Below are positions 2,228 to 57,571 of a stretch of DNA of 64,000 nucleotides, one piece after another. The stretch comes from Cytophagales bacterium (GTDB lineage Bacteria > Bacteroidota > Bacteroidia > Cytophagales > VRUD01): positions 9,717-73,716 of the forward strand of contig VRUD01000001.1 in assembly GCA_019456305.1 (NCBI GenBank). The letters run 5' to 3'. Position 1 is the stretch's first letter. The number at the start of each line of letters is the position of its first letter. The notes under the pieces are model-generated. The model worked only from the letters and a program-made list of their open reading frames with translations, was not told the origin of the DNA and made no database searches. The position numbers and the translations under genes were made by a program.

Positions 2228-4333
2228 TTACAAACTTCTACCCAGATACTTCACAATCAAAAAAAGCATAACGAATCCTAATAAGTAATTAAAGTACCAT
2301 GGAATGCCCATATTCACAAACACCGCACAAACCAATAAGCTTACCACAGCCACAGTGATTGCATAAGGCAATTGCGTTCTCACATGATCTACATGATTAC
2401 AATTGGTTGCTAATGAGCTCAGGATGGTTGTGTCAGAAATGGGCGAGCAGTGGTCACCAAATACCGAACCGGCCAGCACTACGGAAATAACATTATAGAA
2501 TATCGGCATTGATTGCCCGGTTTCAAAACCACTTTGCTGGCATAATAGCCAGGTAGCGGGAAGCATCAAAGGGTATAAAATTGCCATCGTGCCCCAGCTT
2601 GATCCGGTTGAAAATGAGATCAGCGCTGCCAGGATAAAAACTACAGTGGGCATCCATACGGGAGAAATAGCACCGCTGAACAAGGAAGTAAGAAAATCGG
2701 CTGTATGCAGATCCCCGGTTATTTTTGCCAGCGACCATGCCAGGATCAGGATCAGTACTGCAGGAAGCATGGTTTTGAAACCAAATACTAATGTATCCAT
2801 TATTTTTCTTAGCGGCATGATCCTTTGAATGACGGTTAACAGAATGGCTAAAACGACACCTGATAATGACGCCCAGAGCAAAGCCACATAAGCATCAGCA
2901 TTGCCGATAATGATCCCGAGTTTCCTGAAAAATGCTACATCCTGTCCGTTGTTAAGATGGTAAAGGTTTTCCCATACATTCATAAAGGAATAATCCTGTA
3001 TGACAATTCCGGCCTCCAATAAATTATCAAAAGATTTGTGAGCGCCTGTAACCAAAAGCGCTGCTATTGTTACTAAGACTACTGATATAACGGGAATAAA
3101 TGCATTGTACCACTTTTGTTTTACACCCTCGACAGGGTCCAAATCTTTAAGTGATTCATTATTTTCGAATTTCGAATTTCGAGTTTCGAGTTTCGAGTTT
3201 CGAGTTTCGAATTTCGAATTTCGAGTTTCGAATTTCGAGTTTCGAATTTTGAGTTTCGTCCCGAGTACTCGGGATCGAATTTCAGCCTTATACATTGACC
3301 CGAAATCCTTTTTAAAGTATATCAAAAAGAACATAAATACCAGTGTGAAAATGGGATAGAAAGCATATTGCAGCGAATTCAAAAACATTGAATAAGCATT
3401 TTCATTGATCCTTAAGTTAACCGAAGCATCCTGGATATAACCAAGCTCAGCTCCGATCCAGGTGGTAATAAATGCGATAGCAGCTACAGGCGCTGCAGTA
3501 CTATCCACTATATAAGCAAGCTTTTCTCTGGATATCTTGAACTTATCTGTTACCGGGCGCATGGTGTTGCCAACGATAAGTGTATTGGCGTAATCGTCAA
3601 AGAAAATAGCAATGCCCAGAAACCAGGTAATAAATTGCGCACTTCTGGCAGACTTTGCGTATTTTGATAATTTGTCAACAACTCCTGCCATCCCTCCGTT
3701 TTTGGAAATGATCGCTACCATGCCGCCAATCAATGTTGAAAATAAAATTACCGACAAATGCCCTGTGTCCATCATTGCGTTAATGATATAATTATCAAGC
3801 ACGTTGTACATGGCTGGGATCCAGTTTTTAGGATGAAAGCCAAGTAATATAAGCGCTCCTGAAAATATACCCAGGAAAAGCGACACCAACACCTCTCTGA
3901 ATATCAGCGCCATGGCAATGGCAATAAGCGGAGGCAGAATGCTGAGCCAGGCAGGGATATGTCTGATTTTGAAAAATTTAGCTATTCCGGAGTCCGTGTC
4001 CTTTACCGTTATTTTCTTTGATCCGTCAATTATGACAGGTGCAATGCCCATCCCTTCTTTAAACAGGATGATCTTGTTTTTACCATCAAACTGAAATACA
4101 AATTTTCCTTTAATAGACCTGTCTCTGTTGTCGTTCCTGTCTAAAGCGGTTATTTTTACATCTACATTTTTCCTGAACACATATTCGGGCGCTTCTATTA
4201 CAAAGTTTTTGATCCTGAGGGCTTGGACAGAAATACTGTATGTATCTTTGTTTTGCCGGGTAATTTTGATATTTTGTGCACAGGTAAAAATTGAGCATAA
4301 TAACAGCAGGCTTATCAATTGTACCTTTTTCAT
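2228..4333 (-). CDS. NhaC-family Na+/H+ antiporter with an N-terminal extracytoplasmic domain
   Basis: Many TM segments plus the NhaC-type block YANTLIVGNTMRPVTDKFKISREKLAYIVDSTAAPVAA. Start is MKKVQLISLLLLCSIFTCAQ (4331-4333), or 12 nt upstream at 4345. The central loop carries a repeat insertion. Confidence 0.75.
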   Translation of the reverse strand: MKKVQLISLLLLCSIFTCAQNIKITRQNKDTYSISVQALRIKNFVIEAPEYVFRKNVDVKITALDRNDNRDRSIKGKFVFQFDGKNKIILFKEGMGIAPVIIDGSKKITVKDTDSGIAKFFKIRHIPAWLSILPPLIAIAMALIFREVLVSLFLGIFSGALILLGFHPKNWIPAMYNVLDNYIINAMMDTGHLSVILFSTLIGGMVAIISKNGGMAGVVDKLSKYAKSARSAQFITWFLGIAIFFDDYANTLIVGNTMRPVTDKFKISREKLAYIVDSTAAPVAAIAFITTWIGAELGYIQDASVNLRINENAYSMFLNSLQYAFYPIFTLVFMFFLIYFKKDFGSMYKAEIRSRVLGTKLKIRNSKFETRNSKFETRNSKLETRNSKFENNESLKDLDPVEGVKQKWYNAFIPVISVVLVTIAALLVTGAHKSFDNLLEAGIVIQDYSFMNVWENLYHLNNGQDVAFFRKLGIIIGNADAYVALLWASLSGVVLAILLTVIQRIMPLRKIMDTLVFGFKTMLPAVLILILAWSLAKITGDLHTADFLTSLFSGAISPVWMPTVVFILAALISFSTGSSWGTMAILYPLMLPATWLLCQQSGFETGQSMPIFYNVISVVLAGSVFGDHCSPISDTTILSSLATNCNHVDHVRTQLPYAITVAVVSLLVCAVFVNMGIPWYFNYLLGFVMLFLIVKYLGRSL
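3165..3285. repeat. Heptamer array (TCGAATT/TCGAGTT)n plus CCCGAGTACTCGGG core, inside the NhaC ORF
   Basis: About 13 tandem 7-mers at 3165-3258 followed by TCCCGAGTACTCGGGA at 3259-3274. On the - strand this translates as ..EIRSRVLGTKLKIRNSKFETRNSKFETRNSKLETRNSKFE.. with no stop codon. Confidence 0.85.
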
Positions 4334-7430: not shown

Positions 7431-7742
7431 GTTGGCAATCGGCAATCGGCAGTCGGCAGTCCACAATCGACAGTCCACAGTCGGCAGTTGGCAGTTGGCA
7501 GTCCACAGTCCACAATCGGCAGTTGGCAGTCCATCCCGAGTACTCGGGAGCAGTCGGCAATTGTTTTTTGCCGACTGGGGACTGCCGACTGCCGATTGAT
7601 TAAGTTAAGTTTCTAAATCCAGTTGCCATATTGTTTTAATGGTTTGATTGTTATTTTCTTTTTTGTCGACTGTGGACTGCCGACTGCCGACTGATTTTTT
7701 TGCCGACTGGAGACTGTAGATTGCCGACTGCCGACTGCCAAC
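7431..7742. repeat. ~310-bp foldback built from GGCAGTC/GGCAGTT/CCACAGT heptamers around a CCCGAGTACTCGGG core
   Basis: 7431-7533 holds heptamers in GGCAGTY orientation and the core is at 7534-7549. 7570-7606 and 7664-7742 hold the complementary words (CCGACTG, GACTGCC). It lies between convergent genes. Confidence 0.8.
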
Positions 7743-9303: not shown

Positions 9304-10611
9304 TTAAAATAATTTCACCACATCATTTCCAATAACAAATGCCATAAAAGAGAATAATATTACCATTCCTATGACCTGTGCATTTATCATAAATTTATCA
9401 CTGAATTTTTTCCCCGAAACTGCTTCAATACTTAAGAAGGCGGCATGCCCTCCGTCTAAGGCAGGTATGGGCAGTACATTGATAAAAGCCAGGATCATAG
9501 ATAACATACCGGTAAGTAACCAAAATTTATACCACACCCATACCCCACCAAAATGTTTAGCAATGTCAATTGGGCCAGACACAGATTTTGAAAATGATAA
9601 TTCACCTCTGATGATCTTGCCAAAAGCTATTATATTTGCAAATAAAATATCCCAGGATTTAGAGTTTCCCTTTACAATAGATTCAAGAAGTCCGTATTCA
9701 ATATGTTTAAATTTAAAATCATCAGTTATTTCGGGGATGAACCCCAATTTACCATCATCATCAACTTGTGCTGATAATTTTATCTCTTTACCCTTTCGGT
9801 CAATTATTAAATTAGCCTTCTGGGCTTTATAATGTCCCAAAATCTCAACAATTTCATCGAAGAAATTAACAGGTTTGCCATTAACGGAAATTATCTTATC
9901 ATTCGCTAATAATCCTGCTTTTTGGGCATTACTACCCGGTATTACTTCTTTCACATAAAAAGTAAAGCGGTAATCAATAAATTTAGTTCCTTTGGTTTCT
10001 TGCATTCTTTCAAGAAAATCAGCAGGCAGAGGGACATCAATCATTTTACCACTTCTCTCTACATTCAGTACAACATTATCACCCAATAGAACTTTAGTGC
10101 TTGTCAGCTCACTAAACCGGTTAACCTTTTGACCATTTATTGCAATTATTTTATCTCCTGTTTGTAAACCGATTTCCTGACCAAGCTTATGGGCAACAAT
10201 ACCATATTTTGCCTGGTCAATCGGTAAGTAATTGTCGCCATATCTAAAAGTCATTAGTGAAAAAATGACAATGCCAAGGATCACATTGACCGTAACTCCG
10301 GCCAACATAACTATCAGCCGCTTCCAGGCTGGTTTGGATCGAAATTCCCAGGGCTGCGGAGGCTTTTTCATCGCGTCAGTGTCCATAGATTCATCGATCA
10401 TTCCGGCAATTTTAACATATCCACCTAACGGTAGCCAGCCAATGCCATATTCAGTATCTCCTTTTTTAAAACTAAAAAGCTTTACTCCCCAGGCATCGAA
10501 AAACAGGTAAAATTTTTCGACTTTAATTCCAAATATCCTGGCAGCTACATAATGACCTAATTCGTGCAAAATGACCAAAATTGATAAGGCCAGAAGCAAC
10601 TGGGCTATCAT
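9304..10611 (-). CDS. rseP: RIP metalloprotease RseP (site-2 protease)
   Basis: HELGHY zinc motif near the N-terminus, PDZ-like middle region, and a C-terminal LPIPALDGG motif. The start MIAQLLLALS (10609-10611) fits family spacing; the alternative start is at 10692. Confidence 0.8.
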   Translation of the reverse strand: MIAQLLLALSILVILHELGHYVAARIFGIKVEKFYLFFDAWGVKLFSFKKGDTEYGIGWLPLGGYVKIAGMIDESMDTDAMKKPPQPWEFRSKPAWKRLIVMLAGVTVNVILGIVIFSLMTFRYGDNYLPIDQAKYGIVAHKLGQEIGLQTGDKIIAINGQKVNRFSELTSTKVLLGDNVVLNVERSGKMIDVPLPADFLERMQETKGTKFIDYRFTFYVKEVIPGSNAQKAGLLANDKIISVNGKPVNFFDEIVEILGHYKAQKANLIIDRKGKEIKLSAQVDDDGKLGFIPEITDDFKFKHIEYGLLESIVKGNSKSWDILFANIIAFGKIIRGELSFSKSVSGPIDIAKHFGGVWVWYKFWLLTGMLSMILAFINVLPIPALDGGHAAFLSIEAVSGKKFSDKFMINAQVIGMVILFSFMAFVIGNDVVKLF

Positions 10612-10717
10612 AGTGGTGACACTTATGACCTTATCAAAATTCAATATTGATATGTCAAGTAATAAGTAAGTGGTATTTATTATTAGTTCCATATTTATTT
10701 AAGTTTTTCAAAGATGC

Positions 10718-11881
10718 CTACGAATTTACTAGTTCCAAGGCTTTATTCCTGGTTTCAGTATCTGTCTCTACATAATCTTCCAAAGACGGGCTGGCAATAT
10801 AGGGTACTTTATCCATACAACTTTCAATAATTTCTGAAATTTTCAGGAAATTTAATTTTTCCTTTAAAAAGGCGCTGACCGCGATTTCGTTGGCTGCATT
10901 TAATATACAAGCCGCGTTACCCCCTTTATTGAGTGCGAAATAAGCAAGGTCAAGGTTTTTGAAAGTATCCAGGTCTGGTTTTTCAAAAGTCAAATTGGGA
11001 TATTCTGTAAAACTGAACCTCGGAAAATCTGATTTTAGTCTGTATGGAAAACTTAAGGCATATTGTATAGGGATCCTCATATCGGGTAGTCCCATTTGAG
11101 CTTTCATAGAGCCGTCTTCAAACTGGACTATGGAATGAATAATTGATTGGGGATGAATGACTACCTCTATCTGGTTCGTTTCCACGTCAAACAACCACTT
11201 TGCCTCGATCACCTCAAAGCCCTTGTTCATTAATGTTGCCGAATCTATGGTGATCTTGGCGCCCATATCCCAATTAGGATGAGCCAAAGCCTTTTCCTTT
11301 GTTACTGTCTTAAGATCGTTTAATTTTTTCCCTCTGAACGGGCCGCCTGATGCGGTTAGAATGATCTTTTGTATGGGGTTATGATCTTCGCCTACTAAAC
11401 ACTGAAAAATTGCTGAATGTTCTGAATCTACGGGTAAAATTTTGACTTGCTTTTCTTCAGCAAGTTTGGTAATGAGCTCGCCTGCCACTACCAGCGTCTC
11501 TTTATTGGCAAGGGCTATTGTTTTACCTGATTCTATTGCTTGTAAGATAGGTTTTAAGCCTATATAACCTACAAGCGCAGTCAATACAATATCAATAGAA
11601 TCAAATTCAACTATTTGTGTCAAAGACTTTTCGCCTGCAAATACTTTAATCCCTTTTGGATCAAGGGCTTCAAAAACCTGTTTGTATTTTGTTTCATTTA
11701 CTATTACAACAGCGTTAGGGTTAAATTCAATCGCCTGCCTGATGAGCAGCTCAGCATTATTATTGGCGGTTAATATTTCTATCACAAAAAAATCAGGATT
11801 ATTACGAATAACATCCAATGCCTGTGTTCCGATAGAACCTGTTGAACCAAGGATGGCGATATGGCGTTTTTTGTTTGTCAT
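10718..11881 (-). CDS. dxr: 1-deoxy-D-xylulose 5-phosphate reductoisomerase
   Basis: ILGSTGSIGTQALDV NADPH-binding start, LANKE, and the DSEHSAIFQC and HPNWxMG motifs. Confidence 0.95.
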   Translation of the reverse strand: MTNKKRHIAILGSTGSIGTQALDVIRNNPDFFVIEILTANNNAELLIRQAIEFNPNAVVIVNETKYKQVFEALDPKGIKVFAGEKSLTQIVEFDSIDIVLTALVGYIGLKPILQAIESGKTIALANKETLVVAGELITKLAEEKQVKILPVDSEHSAIFQCLVGEDHNPIQKIILTASGGPFRGKKLNDLKTVTKEKALAHPNWDMGAKITIDSATLMNKGFEVIEAKWLFDVETNQIEVVIHPQSIIHSIVQFEDGSMKAQMGLPDMRIPIQYALSFPYRLKSDFPRFSFTEYPNLTFEKPDLDTFKNLDLAYFALNKGGNAACILNAANEIAVSAFLKEKLNFLKISEIIESCMDKVPYIASPSLEDYVETDTETRNKALELVNS

Positions 11882-11889
11882 TTGTAATT

Positions 11890-11944
11890 GACGAAGTACG
11901 AAACACGAATGATCCCGAGCACTCGGGATACTTCTTAATTCGTC
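11890..11944. repeat. Hairpin with ACGAA-word arms and a CCCGAGCACTCGGG core variant
   Basis: GACGAAGTACGAAACACGAATG-ATCCCGAGCACTCGGGAT-ACTTCTTAATTCGTC, located between the dxr start and the dehydratase stop. Confidence 0.7.
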
Positions 11945-11961
11945 ATTAGTAAAATGTTGTG

Positions 11962-12285
11962 TTATAACGCATCAATTTTTGCGGCTAAAATAAAATCATT
12001 TTCAGACAAGCCACCGATAGCATGCGTCCATAATACAATTGTTACTTCATTATAATGTATATGAATATCGGGATGATGTCCTTCTTTTTCAGCTAACTCA
12101 GCGAGTGAATTTACAAATTTCATCGCTTCAATGAAATCTTTAAATACAAAGTTGCGTTGAATTTTGGTTTCATCAATCACTTCCCACAGATTTTTAAGCT
12201 GCGAAAGATATTCCCGGATCTCTGTCCCTTTAATAGGAGGAATACCTCCTTCGCATGCCACACATTTTTTTTCAATAAGTTCCAT
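11962..12285 (-). CDS. Pterin-4-alpha-carbinolamine dehydratase
   Basis: EGHHPD...HY..V...WTH signature (EKEGHHPDIHIHYNEVTIVLWTHAIGGLSENDF). Starts with MELIEKKCVACEG at 12283-12285. Confidence 0.85.
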   Translation of the reverse strand: MELIEKKCVACEGGIPPIKGTEIREYLSQLKNLWEVIDETKIQRNFVFKDFIEAMKFVNSLAELAEKEGHHPDIHIHYNEVTIVLWTHAIGGLSENDFILAAKIDAL

Positions 12286-12368
12286 GATATTTGAAGTAAA
12301 AAGTAATTTATCCAGAAAAGAAAACACAAAATTATAAAAAAAAAGTTTGGCATAGGGGTAAAAAATAT

Positions 12369-12376
12369 TATATTTG
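12369..12376 (+). promoter_or_regulatory. Bacteroidota-type -7 box TATATTTG
   Basis: Matches TAnnTTTG and ends 19 nt upstream of the ATG at 12395. Confidence 0.35.
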
Positions 12377-12394
12377 TAAAAAAAAATAAAAATA

Positions 12395-13057
12395 ATGGAA
12401 ACTCAACAAAAACCCATAACGATTTACACAGAAGCCAACCCCAATCCAAACTCGCTGAAGTTTGTCGCTGATTTTATGTTGGCGCCTGAAGGCAGCAGCT
12501 TTGATTATCCCGATGTCAGCAGCGCTGCTGACGCACCATTGGCATTGGCGTTATTTCAGTTCCCGTTCGTAAGGCGTGTGTTTTTTGCATCCAATTTTGT
12601 TACCATCACAAAGGATGAGAATACAAGCTGGGAAGATATTGCTCCTTCGCTTAAAGATTTTATTAAGAGTTATCTTGAAGCAGGAAAGCCAATACCGCGC
12701 AGCAGCCCCCCTCTAACTCCCGGCCCACCTGAATCGGAGAAACGGGGAATCGGAGAAACGGAGAGAAGGAAAACGAAGCAATTCACCGATTCGGTAAGGA
12801 ATAGTGGAGGAGGGGCTCCTGATTCTGAAATAGTAAAGAAAATAAAGAATGTTTTAGAACAGTATGTCCGTCCTGCGGTTGAAATGGATGGCGGCAATAT
12901 TAGTTTTGACTCATTTCAGGATGGTGTTGTTAAGGTAAACCTGCAGGGCGCCTGCAGCGGCTGCCCTTCTTCTGCAATAACATTAAAGCAAGGGATAGAA
13001 AACCTTTTTAAACAGATGGTTCCGGAGGTGAAGGAAGTGGTGGCTGAGGGGGTTTGA
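12395..13057 (+). CDS. Nfu/NifU-like Fe-S cluster scaffold protein
   Basis: Nfu N-terminal domain (NPNSLKF...) and a C-terminal NifU domain with the CSGCPSS pair. The inter-domain linker carries a repeat insertion. Confidence 0.8.
   Translation: METQQKPITIYTEANPNPNSLKFVADFMLAPEGSSFDYPDVSSAADAPLALALFQFPFVRRVFFASNFVTITKDENTSWEDIAPSLKDFIKSYLEAGKPIPRSSPPLTPGPPESEKRGIGETERRKTKQFTDSVRNSGGGAPDSEIVKKIKNVLEQYVRPAVEMDGGNISFDSFQDGVVKVNLQGACSGCPSSAITLKQGIENLFKQMVPEVKEVVAEGV
12728..12807. repeat. CGGAGAAA-word hairpin element in frame in Nfu; homologous to 55450-55605
   Basis: CCTGAATCGGAGAAACGGGGAATCGGAGAAACGGAGAGAAGGAAAACGAAGCAATTCACCGATTCGGTAAGGAATAGTGG. It encodes PESEKRGIGETERRKTKQFTDSVRNSGG. Confidence 0.85.
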
Positions 13058-13083
13058 CTACCCTTAGATGAAAAGTCAGAGAT

Positions 13084-13335
13084 ATGTCTGTAAATTTACA
13101 TCCTCATGCGCTGGAGCGCATGCTATTACGCGGTGCTAATAAGAAAGAGGTAACAGCCACGGTTGAAAAAGGAGAAGTATTTCCTGCGAAATTAGGAAGA
13201 AAGGGTTTCAGGCGTAATTTCTCTTTTAAACAGCAGTGGAAGGGAAGATTTTATGAAACAAAACAAGTCGAAGTTTTTGCCGTAAAAGAAAATGATGATT
13301 GGCTTGTTATAACTGTTATTACCCGTTATTTTTAA
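13084..13335 (+). CDS. DUF4258-like small protein (putative toxin)
   Basis: The N-terminal HPHALERMLLRGANKKEV pattern (HA..RM..RGI..eeV) is typical of DUF4258. 83 aa, paired with the next ORF. Confidence 0.55.
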   Translation: MSVNLHPHALERMLLRGANKKEVTATVEKGEVFPAKLGRKGFRRNFSFKQQWKGRFYETKQVEVFAVKENDDWLVITVITRYF

Positions 13336-13345
13336 AAAAAATATT

Positions 13346-13603
13346 ATGAAATTAACATATGATCCCCGATATAATATCGCTTATATTTACTTCAAAGAAA
13401 AAAAAACAGAAGTTGAGTCTATAAAAATTAGTGATGAAGTAATAATAGATATTGATACTGATGGTAGTATATATGGTATTGAACTACTCAACGCTAATAA
13501 ACAATTATTACAAAATGGGGATAGGGGTAAAGTTCTTTTCGAGAATGAAGCTACAGGTGAAAAAAAAGAATTATCTATCCTGCCTTCAAAAATTTATTCC
13601 TAA
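13346..13603 (+). CDS. DUF2283-like small protein (putative antitoxin)
   Basis: MKLTYDPRYNIAYIYF...IIIDIDTDGSIYGIELLNA pattern. It starts 10 nt after the previous ORF. Confidence 0.6.
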   Translation: MKLTYDPRYNIAYIYFKEKKTEVESIKISDEVIIDIDTDGSIYGIELLNANKQLLQNGDRGKVLFENEATGEKKELSILPSKIYS

Positions 13604-13608
13604 GGTAC

Positions 13609-13715
13609 CTTCGGAAATTTCAGATGGAATATGGGAGGGAATTTCCGAAGTTTTCTTATTCCCAACACAAACTTCGGAAATCTCCTCCCTGCAGGCCACC
13701 TGAGATTTCCGAAGG
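13609..13715. repeat. Two tandem REP-like hairpins (CTTCGGAAAT stems)
   Basis: CTTCGGAAATT at 13609-13619 pairs with AATTTCCGAAG at 13640-13650. CTTCGGAAATCTC at 13672-13684 pairs with GAGATTTCCGAAG at 13702-13714. Confidence 0.75.
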
Positions 13716-13734
13716 TTTCCTGTCGAAACGTTTT

Positions 13735-13858
13735 TTTCTTTAACTTCTACCAAAAAATGAAAATGATTAGGCATCAGACAATATGACCATACATCCAGGT
13801 AATTTGAAAAATATTTATTACAAATACTTGTTTTTAAAAGAGATTTCTTACCTTTCAC
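13735..13858 (-). pseudogene. Relic of an IS200/RAYT-type Y1 (HUH) transposase
   Basis: ..YFSNYLDVWSYCLMPNHFHFLVEVKE.. contains the (C/V)xMPNHxHxL HUH block of REP-associated tyrosine transposases. The N-terminus and the catalytic-Tyr region are missing. Downstream in-frame codons are just the REP hairpins. Confidence 0.5.
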
Positions 13859-13882
13859 CCATTATTAACCTTCACTCCATTA

Positions 13883-13972
13883 GGGCATCTCTAAAAACTA
13901 CACCATACATTCCCCTCTATCAAGAGGGGCAAGGGGTGTGTTTTAAAAAATATGTAGTTTTTAGAGATGCCC
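13883..13972. mobile_element. 90-bp MITE-like element (copy 1), 20-bp perfect TIR GGGCATCTCTAAAAACTACA
   Basis: Identical at 90/90 positions to 49125-49214. It sits between the RAYT relic and the A2M start. Confidence 0.7.
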
Positions 13973-13993
13973 ATTAGATAATTTTTTATAATC

Positions 13994-16900
13994 ATGAAAA
14001 ATTCTATTAAAAACTTAGCAATTGCAGCCACCATGATCCTTGCTGCCTGCAGTGGCGGCAGATTAAAGGTCACTGATAAGAACTTTGCCGAAGAAATCGA
14101 GCTGCGGCAAAACCTGGTCTTTATTTTTAATAAAGACCTGATGCCCGATTCATTGTGTAACCTCTGGAATAAGACCGAATACATAAAATTTACACCTCCG
14201 GTGTTAGGTAAATTTCAATGGACCAGCCCCAGCGAATTAGTATTCTCTCCTGATCTTGGATTTGCTGCCAGCACAGAATATAAGGGTGAGTTTACTGAAA
14301 AATTATTGAATTTTGCAACGAAAGTCAATTCCTTACCGTCTGAACGGATTATTCCCTTCCACACTCCTTACCTTGACTTATTGGGTACAGATATCTTTTG
14401 GGCAAAAACTTCAGGAAAAATACAGGCGCGTATCAACCTGAATTTTAACTATAAGGTAAACCACCAGGAGCTTGCCCGGTTATTACACATAAAGGTTGAT
14501 GGCAAAGAAAGGGATTTTATTATGAACAGCTCCTCCATCGCACATACGATAGAAGTTGCGGTGGATGAACCTGCGGATAAGAAGTTTGATAACCTTTCAT
14601 TGAAAATAGTCATTGACAAAGGTTTAAAATGTATTGAAAGTGATTGGATAAGCAAGGAAAAGATTGAGCTGACAACCAAAATACCCGACAAAGGCAAATT
14701 CCAGATCACACAGGTGACCACCGAACACGATGGCGAACGGGGGATCATTCATGTTTATACCAACCAAGGTGTTGAAGATAAAAATATCAGAAGCCGGGTC
14801 ACTTTTCAGCCATACATTGCCTTCAAAATAGAAAAACTTGAATATGGCTTCCTGGTAAAAGGCGATTTTAAGACAGAAACTACGTATGAATTAACAATTT
14901 CTAAAGATATAAAAGGGATCTTCGGAAGCCGGTTAGGCAAAGACCATGAACAGTTCGTTGTTTTTGGTGAAGTGGAGCCTGACATAAGATTCACTGCTAA
15001 AAAAGCGATCTACCTTACCGGCAAAGGAACAAAAAATGTGGGGATCAAGATCGTCAATATTCCCACGGTTAATGTAAAAATTTACAAGATATATAAAAAT
15101 AATATCCTGGCCTTTCTGAAAAGTTCCGGCGCCTTCAATTACCATGACGACTATTATGATGATTATTATTGGTATGGCAGCTCAAATCTTGGTACATGGG
15201 GCGATGTGGTGCTCGACAGGGACTACAAAACTAAAGACCTCAAAAAGTTAAATGCGGCCAGCTTATTAAACCTGAATTTCCGTGATATTAACCAATTTAA
15301 GGGAATATTTGTAATAGAGGTAAGCTCCAAAGAAGACCGCTGGCTCAAGGCGTCCCAAACTGTTGCCATTTCTGATGTCGGGCTCATTGTTAAAGAAACA
15401 AAGAACGCCATCCTGGTATTTGCCAATTCAATTTTAACGGCAGAACCGTTGGCAGGCATTGATGTTGGATTGGTGAGTTCAAACAACCAGTTTGTTTACA
15501 ATCTAAACACAGATAATGACGGGGTGGCTGTTTTTAAAGACATCCGCAAAAAAGCTGCCGGCTTTAATATTAAAATGGTAACAGCCAGGGATGGCGAAGA
15601 TTTTACCTACCTGCATTTCAGGCAGTCAAAAGTTGAAAATTCAAGATACGAAGTGGGTGGCAGCCGGGAAAATCCTGCCGGCTACCAGGCGTTCATCTAT
15701 GGCGACCGCAATATTTACAGGCCGGGAGAAACCATCCATGTCAACACAATTATCAGGAATGAAAAATGGGAACCTGTGGGGAAGATCCCCATCAAGCTGA
15801 AATTGCTTTTACCCAATGGGAAAGAGTATAGATTGATCAAAGGCAAATTAAACAGCCAGGGTGCATTTGAAACTTCCATTGAGCTGTCTTCATCTACCGT
15901 TACCGGAACCTATACGTTAGAAGTTTATTCTTCAAATGATGTATTGCTGAATTCCGAATATATCAGCGTAGAAGAATTTATGCCCGACAGGATCAAGGTC
16001 AATGTTACCCTCAATAATGTTGTGGACGGGCGTGTGCGTCCATTACATCCGGGTGAAGACCTTGAAGTATCAGCAACTGCCTTAAACCTGTTCGGCCCGC
16101 CTGCTGCGAACAGGAATTATGAGATGGAAATGGTATTTAACAGGAAATATTTTTCGCCTAAAGGACTGCGGGATTATAACTTTTATATCAGCGGCACGGA
16201 TAATACCTCTTTTGACCGGGAATACCGGGAAGGTAAAACAGATGAGAATGGGGTAGCTATTGAGGAATTCCATATCCCTGAAGTATATGAAAACATGGGA
16301 ATGCTTTCAGGCAAAGTATATGTAACCGTATTTGATGAAACAGGCAGGCCTGTTAACAGGATCAATAGCTTCGATGTGGTCACGCAGGATGTTTTCTATG
16401 GTATCAAATATTTTGATACTTATGTTGCCACTAATAAGGCGTTGAGAATACCGCTCATTGCAATTAATAATGATGGAACGGTGTTGCAGAATATTCCGGC
16501 AAGGGTACAGATCATCAAAAGAACGTGGCATACCGTAATTGAGAAGCGAAGATCAGGAAAGTACCGTTATGTTTCTCAAAAGAAAGAAGAAGTGATGGAA
16601 GAGAGAATGATGGATATCAGCGGTATAAAAACATATTTTGCTTATAAGCCCACTATTTCCGGTGAATATGAAGTCAGGATTAGCAAGCAGGGAACAGATT
16701 CCTATGTAAAACAATATTTCTATGCCTATGGCTGGGGACGTACCGAATCCACATCATTTGAAGTTGACAAAGAAGGGCAGGTTACCATTGAGCTGGATAA
16801 AGACAAGTATAAGGTTGGTGACGATGCAAAGATACTGTTTAAAACGCCATTTTCTGGAAAGCTGCTGGTAACTGTAGAAAGAAATAAAGTTTTTGATCAT

Positions 16901-38123: not shown

Positions 38124-39002
38124 ATGGAATTAAAAATCAATAATCTATCAAAAACTTATCCGAATGGTGTAGAGGCGTTAAAAAATGTCTCCTTAACGAT
38201 TCCTACTGGCATGTTTGGTTTACTTGGGCCGAATGGCGCAGGTAAATCAACCTTAATGCGCATCATTGCTACTTTACAGCAAGCAGATACGGGTTCTGTT
38301 TATCTTGATGATCTAAACGTATTGGACCAAAAGGATGAAGTTAGAAAATTATTGGGATATCTACCGCAGGAATTTGGCTTGTACCCAAAAGTAACTGCTG
38401 AAGGTTTGTTGAATCATTTTGCAGTATTAAAAGGTGTTTCTAATCCTAAAGAAAGAAAAGAAGTGATCCATGGTTTACTTCAATTAACCAATTTATATGA
38501 GGTGAGAAAGAAAAATCTGGGAACTTTTTCCGGAGGTATGAAACAACGGTTTGGTATTGCACAAGCACTTTTAGGCGACCCAAAGTTGATCATTGTAGAT
38601 GAACCTACGGCAGGGTTAGACCCTGCTGAGCGCATACGGTTTCATAACCTGCTGAGTGAAATCGGGGAAAATGTCATTGTTATACTTTCTACGCATATTG
38701 TGGATGATGTAAGTGATCTATGCAGCAGCATGGCAATCATTCATCTTGGAGAGGTGCTCTTAACCGGAAGCCCTTTGCAGCTTATGAATGATCTGAAAGG
38801 CAAAGTGTGGGAAAAAGTAATTGAGAAAGATCAGCTAAAAGCGTATAAGGATAAATTTAATGTTATCTCTGCCAGGTTGTTTGCCGGCAAGTCCCTGATC
38901 CATGTGTATAGTGAACAAAAACCGGATAAATCTTTTGAGACGGTACCACCTGAATTGGAAGATGTATATTTTTCTACTATTACAAAAGATATTCATGTTT
39001 AA
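38124..39002 (+). CDS. ABC transporter ATP-binding protein
   Basis: Walker A GPNGAGKST, signature FSGGMKQR, Walker B LIIVDEPTAGLD. Confidence 0.9.
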   Translation: MELKINNLSKTYPNGVEALKNVSLTIPTGMFGLLGPNGAGKSTLMRIIATLQQADTGSVYLDDLNVLDQKDEVRKLLGYLPQEFGLYPKVTAEGLLNHFAVLKGVSNPKERKEVIHGLLQLTNLYEVRKKNLGTFSGGMKQRFGIAQALLGDPKLIIVDEPTAGLDPAERIRFHNLLSEIGENVIVILSTHIVDDVSDLCSSMAIIHLGEVLLTGSPLQLMNDLKGKVWEKVIEKDQLKAYKDKFNVISARLFAGKSLIHVYSEQKPDKSFETVPPELEDVYFSTITKDIHV

Positions 39003-42000
39003 AGAAATTTTCTTTTTTGAACTTAAATACCGCTTCAAGCGCCCTGCCAATTACATATATTTTGGCATTTTCTTTTTGCTGACTTTCCTGGCAGTGAATG
39101 GAATGGCCGGGGGTTTCAAAGGAGTGGTCATCAGTGTTGGCAGCGGAGGCGGAGGGAAAGTACTGGCAAACTCACCATATCAAATTTATCTCCTGATAAC
39201 TCTTCTAAGTTATTTTGGCATTTTGGTGACTTCAGCCATTATGGGCAATCCTGTTTACAGGGATTTTGAACACCAAACGCATTCTTTATTCTATTCAAAA
39301 CCTATTTCTAAATTCGGATATTTAGCGGGCAGGTTTTTGGGTTCATTGGTAATTGCTTTTTTGGTTTTTTTAGGTCTTGGAATAGGGATTTTAACTGCTT
39401 CATGGATGCCGTGGTTAGACCAGGATTATATTGGTCCATTTTATGCAATGGCTTATGTGCAGCCCTATTTAGTTACAGTACTTCCCAACCTGATATTTAC
39501 AGGCGCTATCTTTTTTGCATTAGCCACGCTCACCAGGAATATTCTTTCTACTTATGTTGGAAGTGTTGTTTTCTTAGTCTTGTATTTTATGGGGCTCAGC
39601 CTTCTTTCTGACCTGGAAAATGAAACTATTGCAGCATTATTAGATCCATTTGGAGAAAGCGCTACCGGATTAGCAACAAAATATTGGACAGTAGCTGAAA
39701 AGAATACATTGATCATTCCATTTACCGGGCACTTATTTTTCAACAGAATTATCTGGTTAAGTGCCGGTGTATTGATCTTTGCTTTTGCATATAAAAAATT
39801 CAGCTTCTCTTATTTTATTTCAGAAAAGAGATCTAGGAAAAAATTGAAGCAGCAAACTTTAGAAACTGAAACAATAGATTGGGCAGGGAAATTTTTAATA
39901 CCACGAGCAACCAGGATATTTTCCTTTTCTACAAATTTAGTACAATATATTAAACTTACAGGGCAGGAATTAAAAGGAATTGTAAAGAACGTTTACTTTA
40001 TAGCCATACTATTTGCCGGTGTAGTGCTGATGTTTGTTAATGGAAGCCAGGTTGGAAAGTTTTATGGAACAACTACCTATCCCGTTACCTACCAGGTTAT
40101 TTCAATAATAAGCGGCTCTTTCGGCTTGTTTTTTCTTATTATTATTATCTTTTATGCCGGTGAATTGGTTTGGAGAGAACGTACAACCAAGATCAATCAG
40201 ATTTTTGATGCCCTACCCATCCCTAACTGGGTGCCGTTTAGTTCTAAATTAACTGCTTTGATCCTGCTTCAGGTCGTATTACTCTTAGTAGTAATGCTGT
40301 GTGGTTTAATCATCCAGGTATTTAAGGGGTATTATCATTTTGAGACCGGTCTATATGTAAAATCATTATTCGGATTACAATTTATAGAACTTGCCTTGCT
40401 TTGTGTATTAGCCATGCTGGTCCAGGTAATCGTAAATCATAAATATCTTGGACATTTTATCATGGTTGTATATTTTTTGGTGAGCATTTTTATGGCGCAA
40501 TTTGGTTGGGAACATAAACTATATGATTACGCTGATGATCCGGGATATACCTATTCTGATATGAATGGCTTTGGACATTTTATCTTGCCGATTGGGTGGT
40601 TTAAAATTTACTGGACGGCTTTTGCAGTATCATTAGCGATATTGTCTAACCTTTTCTGGGTACGGGGGTTGGAAACAAGCCTTAAATGGCGGACTCAACT
40701 TGCAAGAAGACAATTTGTTAAGCCCACAAAAATAGCTTTTATCTTAGCTTTATTGGTATTCTTTATTTCCGGTGGTTTTATTTTTTACAATACCAATATC
40801 TTAAATGAATATATGACCAGCAACGAAAGAGAAGAACTAAGTGTAGAATATGAAAAGCGATATAAAAAGTTTGAAAATTCACCACAACCGCGTATAACAG
40901 ATGTAAATGTCAACGTAGATATCTACCCACTTAGCAGAGATGTTGCATTTAAAGGACATTATATTTTAAAAAATAAAACCAACGAGGCTATTGATTCTAT
41001 CCATATTGATATAAATCGCAACATAACTATTAATGATATGTCTTTTGACAGGAATCATAAAATGGTTTTGGAAGATGAGAAGATAGGGTACTACATAGTT
41101 GAATTATCAAAACCATTATTGCCGGGTGAAAATGTAGTGCTTCAATTTGATTTAGCTTTCACTACGAAAGGGTTCAAAAATAGCGGCTCCAATACAAGTA
41201 TCGTTGAAAACGGGACATTTTTACATAGTAACAGCTATTTACCCGCTATTGGCTACAACGAAGGCGGAGAATTAAGTGATGATGATACCCGTAAAAAACA
41301 TGGCCTGAAACCTAAAGAACGTATGGCTTTAGTAAATGACAGCAATGCAAGGTTGAATAATTATATCTCACATGATGCTGATTGGATTACTTTTGAAGCT
41401 ACTATAAGTACCAGCCCGGATCAGATTGCTATAGCGCCTGGTTATTTACAACGTGAATGGACAGAGGGTAACAGAAGATACTTTCATTATAAAATGGACT
41501 GTAAAATTTTGAATTTTTATTCTTTCCTATCTGCAAGGTATGAAGTTATAAGAGATAGCTACGGCCCTACCAGCCCCCCTAACAGCCCCCCTAAATCCCC
41601 CCAAAGGGGGGCTGTTAGGGGGGCTATTGAAATTTATTACCATAAAGGACATGAATACAACCTGGATGCTATGGTAAAAGCTATTAAAAGATCTTTGGAT
41701 TATTATACAGAAAATTTCTCACCCTACCAGCATAAGCAAGTCAGGATACTGGAATTTCCCCGCTATGCTTCATTTGCACAATCATTTCCTAATACCATTC
41801 CTTATTCAGAAGCAATAGGTTTTATTGCACAGGTAGATGAGGATGATGAAGATGATATTGATTATCCCTTTTATGTTACAGCCCATGAAGTAGCGCACCA
41901 ATGGTGGGCTCACCAGGTGATAGGAGGGAATGTACAAGGCGCTACGGTGATGTCTGAAACCATGTCTCAATATTCAGCCTTGATGGTGATGGAAAAAGAG

Positions 42001-42732
42001 TTTGGAAAGGAAAAAATGAAGAAATTTCTTAAATATGAATTGGACAGATATTTAAGAGGTAGAAGTTTTGAACGAAAAAAGGAACTGCCGTTGATATTGG
42101 TAGAAGGACAGGGATATATTCATTATCAGAAAGGTGGGTTGGTAATGTACGCATTGCGTGATTACATAGGAGAGGATTCATTAAATGAAGCGTTAAGAAA
42201 ATATATCAAAGCAGTAGCTTATCAACAACCCCCATATACCAATTCACTGGAATTTTTAAGCTATATCAAATCAGCTACCCCCGATTCTCTGCAATATATA
42301 ATAAAGGATATGTTTGAAACGATTACCTTGTATGAAAACAAAACCAATGAAGCTGTACTTAAAAAACGCCCGGATGGTAAGTATGCTGTTAAGATTAAGG
42401 TAGCGTCTAAAAAGTTACGGGCTGACAGTTTGGGAAATGAAAAAGAGATCCCTGTTAACGACTGGATAGATATTGGGATATTTGGTAAATCCGAATTGAA
42501 AGCAGAGACGCCCAATTTGGACGTCTCTGCTTTCAATTCGGAAAAAAACTCTAATTCGGATAAATCCTCTATTGGTAAGCCTTTGTACCTGAAAAAACAT
42601 AAAATTAACCAGCCGGAAATGGAATTTGAAATTATTGTAGACGAGCTTCCCTGGAAAGCCGGCATAGATCCCTATAATAAATTAATTGACCGTGATTCGG
42701 GAGATAATGTAAAGAAGGTAGGGGCTGGTTGA
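38995..42732 (+). CDS. ABC-2-type permease fused to an M1-family zinc aminopeptidase domain
   Basis: The ATG at 38995 overlaps the ATPase stop (ATGTTTAA). About 12 TM segments run to roughly 40800. Then comes a peptidase domain with HEVAHQWW...E zinc site. Two hairpin insertions are carried in frame. Confidence 0.8.
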   Translation: MFKEIFFFELKYRFKRPANYIYFGIFFLLTFLAVNGMAGGFKGVVISVGSGGGGKVLANSPYQIYLLITLLSYFGILVTSAIMGNPVYRDFEHQTHSLFYSKPISKFGYLAGRFLGSLVIAFLVFLGLGIGILTASWMPWLDQDYIGPFYAMAYVQPYLVTVLPNLIFTGAIFFALATLTRNILSTYVGSVVFLVLYFMGLSLLSDLENETIAALLDPFGESATGLATKYWTVAEKNTLIIPFTGHLFFNRIIWLSAGVLIFAFAYKKFSFSYFISEKRSRKKLKQQTLETETIDWAGKFLIPRATRIFSFSTNLVQYIKLTGQELKGIVKNVYFIAILFAGVVLMFVNGSQVGKFYGTTTYPVTYQVISIISGSFGLFFLIIIIFYAGELVWRERTTKINQIFDALPIPNWVPFSSKLTALILLQVVLLLVVMLCGLIIQVFKGYYHFETGLYVKSLFGLQFIELALLCVLAMLVQVIVNHKYLGHFIMVVYFLVSIFMAQFGWEHKLYDYADDPGYTYSDMNGFGHFILPIGWFKIYWTAFAVSLAILSNLFWVRGLETSLKWRTQLARRQFVKPTKIAFILALLVFFISGGFIFYNTNILNEYMTSNEREELSVEYEKRYKKFENSPQPRITDVNVNVDIYPLSRDVAFKGHYILKNKTNEAIDSIHIDINRNITINDMSFDRNHKMVLEDEKIGYYIVELSKPLLPGENVVLQFDLAFTTKGFKNSGSNTSIVENGTFLHSNSYLPAIGYNEGGELSDDDTRKKHGLKPKERMALVNDSNARLNNYISHDADWITFEATISTSPDQIAIAPGYLQREWTEGNRRYFHYKMDCKILNFYSFLSARYEVIRDSYGPTSPPNSPPKSPQRGAVRGAIEIYYHKGHEYNLDAMVKAIKRSLDYYTENFSPYQHKQVRILEFPRYASFAQSFPNTIPYSEAIGFIAQVDEDDEDDIDYPFYVTAHEVAHQWWAHQVIGGNVQGATVMSETMSQYSALMVMEKEFGKEKMKKFLKYELDRYLRGRSFERKKELPLILVEGQGYIHYQKGGLVMYALRDYIGEDSLNEALRKYIKAVAYQQPPYTNSLEFLSYIKSATPDSLQYIIKDMFETITLYENKTNEAVLKKRPDGKYAVKIKVASKKLRADSLGNEKEIPVNDWIDIGIFGKSELKAETPNLDVSAFNSEKNSNSDKSSIGKPLYLKKHKINQPEMEFEIIVDELPWKAGIDPYNKLIDRDSGDNVKKVGAG
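41572..41625. repeat. 54-bp hairpin in frame in the M1 domain
   Basis: AGCCCCCCTAACAGCCCCCC (41572-41591) is the perfect reverse complement of GGGGGGCTGTTAGGGGGGCT (41606-41625). It encodes ..SPPNSPPKSPQRGAVRGA.. Confidence 0.9.
42491..42541. repeat. 51-bp hairpin (AGACG-CCCAATTTGG-CGTCT core family) in frame in the M1 domain
   Basis: CCGAATTGAAAGCAGAGACG (42491-42510) is the perfect reverse complement of 42522-42541, with loop CCCAATTTGGA. It encodes SELKAETPNLDVSAFNS. Confidence 0.9.
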
Positions 42733-46631: not shown

Positions 46632-46660
46632 TGATTTTGGTTAGTTGGAAAGTGTTTTTT

Positions 46661-54817: not shown

Positions 54818-55975
54818 TTACAAGCCATACCTTCTTTTTAATTCATCACACGTCCATCTTATGGTGTCATTGATGTCTCTGAAATTCAAGCCTTCTTTTC
54901 CGTTAGACAGGCTTAATAAATTCCTTATCTTTCCATTATTGTAATGCAATGAATTTAAAGATGATTTTACAATATCTTTAGTGACCAAGGGCGGCTTTCC
55001 TGTGAAAAGAGATCTTATTATTTCAAATCTCCATGCAATACCACCCCAAAATGGTGATACCATGATATTGGGTTTTCTTTTATCAAAATTCAGCGCAATA
55101 ATATCAAATAATTCCTTATAAGATATTTTACCGGCAAAAATTAAGTACCTTTCATTATTTATCCCGGTATTGATCAACTGCAGCGTGATTTCAGCCAGAT
55201 CCCTCACATCAATATAATGCACCTCCCGGGTAGTATAAAAAGGATATTGTTTCCATACATATTGAAATATTTTTGAACTGCCTTTTTTCCAATTACCAGG
55301 ACCTAATACCACTGCCGGGTTTAATATAACGGCATTGAGTCCTTCTTCTATGCCTCGCCATACTTCCATTTCCGCAAGATATTTTGTTTGGGCGTATAAT
55401 GACACTTCTTCATAGACTGAAAATTGGATTTTTTCATTAATACCAGCCTTCCCCCCACTATTCCTTACCGAATCGGTGAATGGGTGAATCGGTGAATCGG
55501 TGAATTGCTTCGTTTTTCTTCTCTCCGTTTCTCCGATTCCCCGTTTCTCCGTTTCAGGAGGGCTGGTGTGGCTGCCGCTTATTCCCCGTTTCTCCGATTC
55601 AGGGAGGCTGGTAGGTTTGCCTATTGCCGCAACCGAACTTAAATGACAAAGTTTTTTTACACCTTTTTTGATACATACATTTACAATATTTGAGGTACCC
55701 TCTACATTTGTTTTGAATATTAATTTCTTGTCATGGTAAGATAATGAAACCATGGCAGCCGTATGGATAACCGTATCAACGCCTTCAATACTTTTTTCTA
55801 AACCCGTAATATCAAGTATATCTCCTTCTATCCACTCGATTTTATCAGCAATATCAGCAACGAGAGACAGATCGCTCGTTTTTCTTTTTAAAGCGCGCAG
55901 GCGATTGCCTTGCTGTAGTAATTTTCTGGCTATAAAACTCCCTACCAAACCAGTGCAGCCGGTGATGAAAAACAT
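54818..55975 (-). CDS. NAD-dependent epimerase/dehydratase (SDR) family protein
   Basis: GCTGLVG Rossmann motif at the N-terminus and a YAQTK catalytic Y..K. An insertion of about 50 aa lies between SSVAAIG and the YxxxK region. Confidence 0.8.
   Translation of the reverse strand: MFFITGCTGLVGSFIARKLLQQGNRLRALKRKTSDLSLVADIADKIEWIEGDILDITGLEKSIEGVDTVIHTAAMVSLSYHDKKLIFKTNVEGTSNIVNVCIKKGVKKLCHLSSVAAIGKPTSLPESEKRGISGSHTSPPETEKRGIGETERRKTKQFTDSPIHPFTDSVRNSGGKAGINEKIQFSVYEEVSLYAQTKYLAEMEVWRGIEEGLNAVILNPAVVLGPGNWKKGSSKIFQYVWKQYPFYTTREVHYIDVRDLAEITLQLINTGINNERYLIFAGKISYKELFDIIALNFDKRKPNIMVSPFWGGIAWRFEIIRSLFTGKPPLVTKDIVKSSLNSLHYNNGKIRNLLSLSNGKEGLNFRDINDTIRWTCDELKRRYGL
55450..55605. repeat. Expanded copy of the CGGAGAAA-word element, in frame in the epimerase
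   Basis: Its rc contains CCTGAATCGGAGAAACGGGGAAT...CGGAGAAACGGAGAGAAGAAAAACGAAGCAATTCACCGATTC..GGTAAGGAATAGTGG. It encodes ..PESEKRGISGSHTSPPETEKRGIGETERRKTKQFTDSPIHPFTDSVRNSGG.. Confidence 0.85.
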
Positions 55976-56089: not shown

Positions 56090-57571
56090 CTAAATATCTG
56101 ATGGTATAAACGACTGGGCATATTTGTTCCGAATCAATTCATCAATGAGACTTTCAACTTCCTCACTATCCCATTTTTGTTCTATATCCTCAATAGTAGT
56201 GATTTCTTTGAGCATTTTATCCTGTTCTTTGCCGATCCGCATAGCTTCAGCATAGGGGATATGGCTAAACATGACCATAGAATATAAGGGAGTAAATTTA
56301 TCAGGGTATGATTTATGGATCTTTCTTTCAAGATTTTTTCGTACTAAAAATTTAGGGTCTCCTACCAGGTCGCGCATTTCAATAAAATTCTGAAGTGCCA
56401 GTTCTGAAATGGCATCCGTATTGGGTTTACGGTTTTTTTCATATTCCTTAAAAATAGTTTCCCACCGTTCTCCCCCGATTGGGTCGTTCCTGCCATCTGG
56501 GCAGGCATACTTTCCCATCAGTTCATTTAGCACTGTTATGTCTTCAAAGCCAGCGATCATTCCCTGGCCGTAAAAGGGAACGATAGCGTGGGCAGCATCA
56601 CCGATCATAGCTACCTTATCTTTGTATGTCCATGGAAAGCAGCGAATATAGCAGAGTGATGAGGTAGGGTTGGCAAAATAAGTTTCAGTCAAAGCAGGCA
56701 TCAAGTCCGCGGCATCAGGGAAGGTTTGAAAAAACTTCAGCAGATCCGATCCTGTTTTTATGGAGTCAAAAGAGGTTGTATCAGTGCCTGTTCCGGAAGA
56801 ATCAGTAGTGTCAGGTGTTTGGTAGAGACGCCCAATTTGGTCGTCTCTACCAAACACCTGACGCCAAGGTAAAAATAAGGTACAGGTAAAGCTCCCATCT
56901 GCATTGGGCAGGGCGATCAGCATATAGTGTTTTCTAGGCCAGATATGTAAGGCATTTTTTTCCATAGCCCAACTGCCGTCAGCGGCAGGCGGAATGGTCA
57001 ATTCTTTATAACCATGTTCAATATAAGTTTGTGCATAATTAAAACGATCGGTCATTTGCATTACACTCCGTATTTGTGAAAAGGTGCCATCAGCGCCAAA
57101 TACCAGGTCACTTTTTACATCTGAGACAGCTCCTGTCTTTTGATTTTCTACTTTGATCACAGCTTCTTCCAAATCAACATCCACGCATTTTTCGTTGAAA
57201 TGAATGGTAGTGTTAGAATTTTTTTCAGCATGGTTCATCAGCGTTTTATTGAGCCCGCTGCGAGAAACAGCGTATATGGCGTCATCTTCTTTTCCGTAGG
57301 GTTGAAAAGAAAGTTCGCCATTGACTGCATGTATCATCCTGCCGCGCATGGGTATGGCTGCCTTGCGGACTTCTTCACCAATGCCCGCATCATCCAGCGC
57401 TTTCCAGCCCCTGGTAGAGCAGGCAAGGTTAATAGACCTGCCGGCAGGTATTTTTGCTTTTCGCATATCGGACCTGCTTTCATAAACATCTACCTGATAG
57501 CCCTTTCTTCCCAGGTATATGGAGAGCAGTGAGCCGATAAGCCCTGCGCCTGTTATGGTGATGTGCTTCAT
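56090..57571 (-). CDS. kmo: Kynurenine 3-monooxygenase (FAD-dependent)
   Basis: ITITGAGLIGSLLSIYLGRKGY FAD fold, GDAAHAIVPFYGQGM motif, and a C-terminal helical region. It carries a hairpin insertion in frame. Confidence 0.85.
   Translation of the reverse strand: MKHITITGAGLIGSLLSIYLGRKGYQVDVYESRSDMRKAKIPAGRSINLACSTRGWKALDDAGIGEEVRKAAIPMRGRMIHAVNGELSFQPYGKEDDAIYAVSRSGLNKTLMNHAEKNSNTTIHFNEKCVDVDLEEAVIKVENQKTGAVSDVKSDLVFGADGTFSQIRSVMQMTDRFNYAQTYIEHGYKELTIPPAADGSWAMEKNALHIWPRKHYMLIALPNADGSFTCTLFLPWRQVFGRDDQIGRLYQTPDTTDSSGTGTDTTSFDSIKTGSDLLKFFQTFPDAADLMPALTETYFANPTSSLCYIRCFPWTYKDKVAMIGDAAHAIVPFYGQGMIAGFEDITVLNELMGKYACPDGRNDPIGGERWETIFKEYEKNRKPNTDAISELALQNFIEMRDLVGDPKFLVRKNLERKIHKSYPDKFTPLYSMVMFSHIPYAEAMRIGKEQDKMLKEITTIEDIEQKWDSEEVESLIDELIRNKYAQSFIPSDI
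56810..56862. repeat. 53-bp nested hairpin in frame in kmo
   Basis: GTCAGGTGTTTGGTAGAGACG (56810-56830) is the perfect reverse complement of 56842-56862, with loop CCCAATTTGGT. It encodes ..RQVFGRDDQIGRLYQTPD.. Confidence 0.9.

Follow-up and report, generated by a model that had tools for sequence, protein, structure and literature searches.

The window, the whole stretch of 64 kb that was analysed, carries between a DUF2283 gene and an alpha-2-macroglobulin gene a minus-strand reading frame that is a chimera. One part is the remnant of a RAYT (REP-associated tyrosine transposase, or TnpAREP) and the other is the translation of an in-frame REPIN. The locus comprises the following features:

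13586..13858, minus strand: annotated 90-aa ORF, a 90-codon open frame (NCBI FVQ77_00115, 'hypothetical protein', from a Cytophagales MAG)
13724..13825, minus strand: RAYT/TnpAREP pseudogene fragment of ~35-40 codons, recognised by HMM, tblastn, alignment A1 and phmmer
13757..13765, minus strand: HUH motif, CAT TTT CAT (His-Phe-His), in YCLMPNHFHFLV
13608..13723, no strand: REPIN of 116 nt, two inverted REP units with a spacer, recognised by nested arms, fold and copies in L087, L093 and L086; the palindrome proper is 13607-13716 (110 nt, nested)
13669..13723, minus strand: REP unit A, which adjoins the HUH block, with foot GGAAACC, stem CTTCGGAAATCTC / GAGATTTCCGAAG and a 17-nt loop
13607..13653, minus strand: REP unit B, an inverted copy of unit A, with stem CTTCGGAAATT / AATTTCCGAAG
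13883..13972, no strand: unrelated 90-nt MITE with 20-nt perfect terminal inverted repeats (GGGCATCTCTAAAAACTACA); a second copy, 100% identical and in unrelated flanks, lies at 49125-49214

The translation of the minus-strand ORF contains ..NKYFSNYLDVWSYCLMPNHFHFLVEVKEKN.., which the preliminary description had read as the HUH block of a RAYT lacking its N-terminus and its catalytic-Tyr part. Both points were borne out by a family HMM built from 16 relatives with the relic left out, which matched the relic with 63.2 bits (E = 2.8e-18) and only at profile positions 40-88 of 209. The fragment covers the end of the helix before strand beta3 and beta3 itself with the HUH motif; in alignment A1 this HUH region alone is retained, and ~45 N-terminal codons and ~120 C-terminal codons, including the catalytic Tyr (YIHxNP motif in relatives), are absent. 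The general models were less sensitive than the family model. Pfam Y1_Tnp (PF01797, 'Transposase IS200 like') gave the sole Pfam match of the relic, at 16.6 bits (E = 0.0085) against a gathering cutoff of 23 bits, and REP_Tyr_transpos gave the sole NCBIfam match (E = 0.0013, below cutoff). Four of five intact relatives scored even lower than the relic on Pfam Y1_Tnp, and the Pfam model is therefore insensitive to this clade. With a model suited to the family, the HUH-like block withstands the HMM search whose failure the preliminary description had named as a refutation.

Direct searches gave the same picture. With the relic as query, phmmer returned 54 matches at E <= 1e-3 (best 1.3e-8) among 1.84e9 representative proteins. 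When ~170 collected proteins of 150-300 aa, almost all of them family members, were compared with the window by tblastn, 141 matches fell into the single 150-nt bin that holds the relic, the best (E = 2.5e-12) at 13816-13709, where identity to the closest intact relative, P0003, is 69%. The second-best fragment found by the family HMM in the six frames of the window reached only E = 0.59, and neither method found a further family fragment, or an intact paralog, within the 64 kb. A word-indexed protein search with the 55-aa relic matched the relic itself alone, phmmer of the relic alone against the PDB gave nothing relevant, and an exact-sequence lookup of the relic ORF found no record. Plasmids gave marginal tblastn matches to the HUH block only, and a search of viral contigs for related loci with this short query gave pattern matches of which none was confirmed. 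As the N-terminal part and the catalytic Tyr part are gone, the gene is dead: the FVQ77_00115 locus holds a pseudogene of a RAYT/TnpAREP-type Y1 HUH transposase and not a functional member.

The remainder of the frame is repeat. Residues 48-90 of FVQ77_00115 are coded by hairpins (GNLRKSQ..EISEV..TSEIP..SEISEG), and a word-indexed protein search with this hairpin-coded peptide found two small ORFs. Two perfect stem pairs, 13609-13619/13640-13650 and 13672-13684/13702-13714, had been described earlier and were confirmed. A stronger, nested pairing joins 13607-13627 with 13696-13716 and 13633-13653 with 13669-13689 (21-nt arms, 90% complementarity), and as single-stranded DNA either strand folds into one long bulged hairpin of about -35 kcal/mol (z about -7.5 to -7.9). 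The inverted REP-like hairpins, built on AAAC[CT]TTCGGAAAT, are set apart by a 15-nt spacer. Because two inverted REP hairpins with a short spacer fold here as one hairpin, the element at 13608-13723 has the architecture of a REPIN. Its REP feet are GGAAACC and AAAAC, and both a 5' GT[AG]G foot and a double foot GT[AG]G..C[TC]AC are absent. The core CTTCGGAAAT occurs four times in the window, always within 13609-13714, with 0.27 occurrences expected by chance. A gap of 4 nt separates REP unit B from the convergent DUF2283 gene, whose stop codon is at 13601-13603, and the REPIN may now serve as a transcript-end structure for the neighbouring operon. No terminator was called at the REPIN, and Rfam gave only spurious matches to miRNA precursors, far below threshold.

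Copies of the element were found at other loci. A JGI metagenome contig (L087) carries the whole doublet with an identical spacer (92.9% over 113 nt), and in L093/L094 the doublet (89% over 109 nt) lies downstream of a gene for aspartyl-tRNA synthetase. L086 holds a single REP unit, 100% identical to 13607-13657 (51 nt), and L001 holds 1.5 REP units. L086 comes from ENA analysis ERZ23499938, and so does L088, in which window positions 9346-17603 recur with 100% identity; the copies seen in this metagenome sample are the one within the 64 kb and a singlet on a second scaffold, L086. No transposase gene lies beside the REPIN or REP copies of L087, L093/L094, L086 and L001, and these sites are intergenic. 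The bounds 13608-13723 were taken from the sequence common to the dispersed copies, and by comparison of these copies the REPIN is an independently mobile unit. We also considered that the doublet could be a by-product of a deletion that fused an intragenic with a flanking REP, and rejected this idea on the grounds that the same doublet and spacer occur in L087 and L093 without a RAYT.

Two further repeats accompany this REP family. In L087 (200-281) and L093 (745-797), which are unrelated loci, the REPIN is preceded by a shared module of ~60 nt (GGCTATATGGTTATATGGTTTC..GTTA[AG]CCATATAGC), which points to a composite repeat of larger size there; in the window the corresponding place is taken by the RAYT relic. 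Tandem 7-mers (GTAAAAA / TTTTTAC)n lie near CTTCGGAAAT REPs in two unrelated contigs, L001 (1-190 and 290-330) and L086 (about 3300-3345).

How the REPIN sits with respect to the old gene was informative. Homology to the family ends at ..VEVKEKNVST and the REPIN starts at the very next codons (GGA AAC CTT CGG ..), and the ORF runs through the entire REPIN without a stop, from nine codons after the HUH strand onward. On the minus strand, two of three frames pass through the REPIN without a stop, so that the open frame is weak evidence when taken alone. The preliminary description had placed a REP doublet directly 3' of the HUH block. The doublet itself was upheld and the 3'-flanking position was not: on the evidence of the read-through ORF, of L002 and of other relatives, the REPIN lies at the variable-linker position, directly after the HUH strand. 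L002, from a Chloroflexota MAG, is the sole hairpin match in the genome collection with a transposase nearby. Its family gene is apparently intact and reads ..YCLMPTHYHLTLRGHENQ-TSEISSGVSPILESSKEISEV-FSPISRAMKNFLISYTKGINKRYGRVGTLFQG..YIHANP.., the middle, hyphenated segment being a 66-nt in-frame hairpin. This hairpin (AAACTTCGGAAATCTC..GAGATTTCCGAAGTTT), right after the HUH strand, is of the REP type of the window REPIN, and a related REP (AAACTTCGGAAGTCTCC..) follows directly 3' of the stop codon. In alignment A1 the L002 transposase is 26% identical to reference P0003 and the relic row 36%; because the L002 transposase is not especially close to the relic, the REP core common to both could reflect convergence.

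We then asked how the linker behaves across the family. The family profile matched 5030 proteins, which their sources name 'transposase', 'REP element-mobilizing transposase RayT' or 'IS200-like', with hosts that include Fulvivirga, Balneolaceae, Flavilitoribacter, Prevotellaceae and Candidatus Leptofilum; the clade is common in Bacteroidota and Chloroflexota. No FVQ77 protein was among the best 120 of these 5030 matches. Intact members have 190-225 aa and share the order FYHIYNRGNN .. YCLMPNHFHFL .. variable linker .. R.GSLFQK.FK .. YIHxNP.HHGL .. W.YSSY. In a survey of 80 metagenomic loci with family genes, the distance from the HUH to the Tyr motif ranged from 53 to 103 aa, and we called a gene long-linker when this distance was >= 64 aa (n=48; short-linker n=23). 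The most stable 45-nt window of the gene lay in the linker in 24 of the 48 long-linker genes, against 7.2 expected by length, a count not attained in any of 200,000 simulations. The linker also held every one of the 18 strong hairpins of family genes (-12 kcal/mol or stronger), and the 23 short-linker genes had none.

These linker hairpins are related to the surroundings of their genes. For thirteen of the 18, 11-mers of the hairpin turn up again at other sites of the locus, and for ten of these thirteen such a site lies within about 100 nt of the 5' or 3' end of the gene (L015, L035, L067, L031, L036, L006, L034, L016, L042 and L044). In this clade, then, an in-frame copy of the REP that flanks the gene is a regular feature of the post-HUH linker. 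Short-linker genes, L021 for example, show the classical layout with the same hairpin on both flanks (2930-2960 and 3615-3645 in L021), and P0003 has no REP in its flanks, which are short. A foot of the form (A/G)AAC(C/T) occurs in 9 of 22 clade hairpins, which are not independent of each other, against about 4% expected, and both REP units of the window carry it as well. The REP hairpins of the clade (genes of L006-L085; L021) often combine this foot with a TTYNAAA loop. A GT[AG]G-type tag is present in 2 of the 18 linker REPs of relatives, and at the position that aligns with E. coli W94, which belongs to the GTAG-binding region, 49 of 71 relatives have Phe and one has Trp.

The closest described group is TnpAREP subclass 2.4, reported from Cyanobacteria, Bacteroidetes and other phyla, with hosts that include Caldilineae/Chloroflexi (Quentin, Siguier, Chandler and Fichant, 2018; PMC6006769), and equivalent to RAYT group 4 (Bertels et al., 2017; PMC5581495). 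Subclass 2.4 has the HuH motif NH[IFV]H (Table 1 of PMC6006769), a variable insertion between beta3 and alphaC and an accumulation of in-frame REPs in this post-HUH linker, and its canonical REP has a 5' GT[AG]G foot or a 'double foot' GT[AG]G..C[TC]AC (PMC6006769). The relic resembles this group in all the features that it retains: in its NHFH, which fits NH[IFV]H, in the variable insertion after the HuH strand and in the in-frame REP. It differs in that the window REP is without a 5' GT[AG]G foot and in that the intact genes nearest to the relic code for Phe at the position of W94 and for W.YSSY after the Tyr motif. The subclass 2.4 features W94-Q95 and YIxNNP fall in the region deleted from the relic, and the Tyr motif of the relatives is YIHxNP. 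As the Y motif and the W-Q region are lost, the subclass of the relic cannot be fixed; it is probably a RAYT of the in-frame-REP type, with subclass 2.4 as the closest described group and membership not established.

Beyond this group, the family sides with TnpAREP. The family profile (A1) had E. coli TnpAREP 4ER8 as its sole PDB match (E = 2.8e-7), and intact members had REP_Tyr_transpos as their sole NCBIfam match as well, with 52-65 bits (E 1e-14 to 1e-18; equivalog cutoff 80 bits), which places the relic closer to TnpAREP than to the TnpA of IS200/IS605. With the E. coli enzyme (YafM, 4ER8) it shares the HUH/Y1 nuclease type and hairpin repeats (REP/BIME) present as inverted pairs, but the E. 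coli gene is REP-flanked and uninterrupted, its REPs carry a GTAG guide tetranucleotide, and its similarity to the family is limited to the C-terminal half, which is lost in the relic. In the REPIN-RAYT system of Pseudomonas, an inverted pair of REPs with a short spacer forms one long hairpin, which is the mobile unit (Bertels and Rainey, 2011; PMC3116915, PMC3337134). The window element is likewise an inverted REP pair with a short spacer, and singlets coexist with doublets, but its copy number is low as far as seen, its RAYT is dead, and lineage and REP sequence are different.

Altogether, these results indicate that 13724-13825 is the remnant of a RAYT/TnpAREP and 13608-13723 a REPIN in its linker, most likely the cognate substrate of the dead enzyme, and we hold this reading with good confidence. 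Where genes of this clade carry an in-frame copy of their flanking REP, its usual place is the linker, which is why we take the REPIN for the cognate substrate. That the REPIN is instead unrelated to the relic's transposase, having been inserted later by another enzyme into the pseudogene or the 3' end of the DUF2283 operon, where it may now act as a stabiliser or terminator, seems unlikely to us, although several observations fit it: a position 4 nt from the DUF2283 stop is typical of an extragenic REP, all the other copies found are intergenic and without a RAYT, the window has a single REPIN copy, and a passage through the REPIN is open in two of three minus-strand frames anyway. What tips the balance is that the junction between relic and REPIN falls exactly where relatives carry in-frame REPs, that an intact relative, L002, has the same REP core both in its linker and at its 3' flank, and that no terminator-like site was called at the REPIN.

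The remaining two alternatives concern the reading frame itself. The ends of IS200/IS605 elements form hairpins too, and IS200/IS605 TnpAs (IS608, ISDra2) belong to the same HUH/Y1 superfamily and recognise hairpins in single-stranded DNA; with 'Transposase IS200 like' as the only Pfam match, the locus might be the relic of such an insertion sequence, its hairpins being the subterminal end structures. We consider this very improbable, since the family profile matches the TnpAREP structure 4ER8 and no IS608 or ISDra2 TnpA structure, the sole NCBIfam match is REP_Tyr_transpos, and the window shows neither IS ends nor a tnpB nor a second copy of the gene in its 64 kb; moreover, the hairpin element moves without the gene, and the short REPs on the flanks of the relatives turn up again at other sites of the same loci. 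That the ORF at 13586..13858 could be a genuine small protein gene, with an HUH-like block arisen by chance or convergence, is hardly credible. An NCBI protein annotation does exist, and the Pfam and NCBIfam scores are under their cutoffs, but the family HMM match has E = 2.8e-18 and is confined to profile positions 40-88 of 209, half of the ORF is a translated palindrome, and the protein searches found no homolog of the whole ORF besides itself.

The surroundings of the relic hold other mobile and repeated sequences. The MITE that had been noted at 13883, on the 5' side of the relic, is real. At a distance of 24 nt upstream of the relic ORF, it separates the truncated 5' end of the relic from the start of the alpha-2-macroglobulin gene at 13994. 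It has been active recently, with two copies that are 100% identical, and by sequence it is unrelated to the CTTCGGAAAT REP. On the other side, two small adjoining genes, 13084-13335 (DUF4258, 24.5 bits, just under cutoff) and 13346-13603 (DUF2283, E 1.4e-14), look like a toxin-antitoxin-type pair.

At least three other palindromic families, unrelated to the CTTCGGAAAT REP, are present in the window. One is a REP-like family, GTAGAGACG..loop..CGTCTCTAC, of the 'double foot' GT[AG]G..C[TC]AC type of subclass 2.4 REPs, with at least five copies in 64 kb:

32793-32852: GTAGAGACG family copy
42490-42542: GTAGAGACG family copy
46986-47014: GTAGAGACG family copy
48052-48080: GTAGAGACG family copy
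56810-56862: GTAGAGACG family copy

This family would be expected to have its own enzyme. A similar GTAGAGACG-type copy is found in L021 at 5466-5493. We also considered the GTAGAGACG double-foot family as the REP of the clade and rejected it: it occurs in one fetched locus only, 2 kb from a gene that has its own, different flanking REP. Two of its palindromes are read in frame by long ORFs (42490-42542 in 38902..42732, plus strand, and 56810-56862 in 56090..57571, minus strand), giving the peptides SELKAETPNLDVSAFNSE and RQVFGRDDQIGRLYQTPD, and they look like repeats that were inserted in frame into host genes. A 70-nt repeat (12723-12792 and 55494-55563, 95.7% identity) lies in two different ORFs, the NifU/Nfu-like gene 12395..13057 (plus strand) and the ORF 54818..55975 (minus strand), with the shared peptide EKRGIGETERRKTKQFTDS. 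A palindromic family GCCACAAAAGCACAAAAGCAC .. GTGCTTTGGTGTTTTAGTGGC is found at 2066-2218, where it is nested in a larger inverted repeat, and at 46660-46754. The ORF 38902..42732 also holds a perfect 21-nt inverted repeat (AGCCCCCCTAACAGCCCCCCT, 41572-41625), and 7443-7598 is a large imperfect palindrome that contains CAATCGGCAGTCGGCAG repeats.

With one REPIN copy in 64 kb against at least five copies of the GTAG-footed family, the CTTCGGAAAT family does not dominate among the repeats of the window. The preliminary description had further proposed that an intact paralog of the relic mobilises the many palindromic families of this DNA, and this proposal was not supported. The genes of the relatives are each flanked by their own hairpin family, in line with the one REP family per tnpAREP reported before (PMC6006769), and no sequence is common to the CTTCGGAAAT REP and the other families of the window. 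A single RAYT that mobilises all palindrome families here is thus unlikely.

The cognate relationship between RAYT and REPIN, the mechanism of deletion and the mode of action are what we infer from these comparisons, and the CTTCGGAAAT family is proposed as cognate by analogy with the relatives. A RAYT gene with an in-frame REPIN would once have stood between the DUF2283 gene and the alpha-2-macroglobulin gene, the REPIN having landed in the permissive linker, or having been inherited within it, with the frame kept. Deletions would later have taken away ~45 codons at the N-terminus and, on the 3' side, all that followed the REPIN, the catalytic Tyr among it. On this 3' side the loss stops at the outer edge of the REPIN, and a plausible cause is recombination of the intragenic REPIN with a 3'-flanking copy: relatives have the same REP in the linker and again just behind the stop codon, and an exchange between two such REPs would excise exactly the segment that was lost. 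E. coli TnpAREP binds and cleaves single-stranded REP hairpins and then rejoins them. By analogy, single-stranded REP hairpins would have been the substrate that the intact enzyme bound, cut and rejoined, and REP and REPIN copies would have spread in this way. It is also conceivable, if distinctly doubtful, that the clade uses a guide code unlike GTAG/W94, with Phe for W94 and (A/G)AAC(C/T) feet, and that its in-frame REP is a seed copy or a means of self-targeting and not a tolerated accident. As a protected seed, the in-frame REP may travel with the gene and found or refresh a REP population after transfer; alternatively, it may make the enzyme's own gene a target.

The object is ordinary in kind, the pseudogene of a known type of transposase with a known type of in-frame repeat, and it is a new instance in that its REP family lacks GTAG. 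The arrangement of REPs in frame within RAYT genes was published in 2018 (PMC6006769), and current understanding is unchanged. For the annotation, FVQ77_00115 should become a pseudogene fragment and a repeat, and not a protein. For the family, the GTAG-less REPs built on AAAC[CT]TTCGGAAAT are added to those found inside RAYT genes, and this decayed RAYT of an uncultured Cytophagales, which retains its REPIN, captures a REPIN family that has outlived one of its candidate enzymes or is in the course of doing so.
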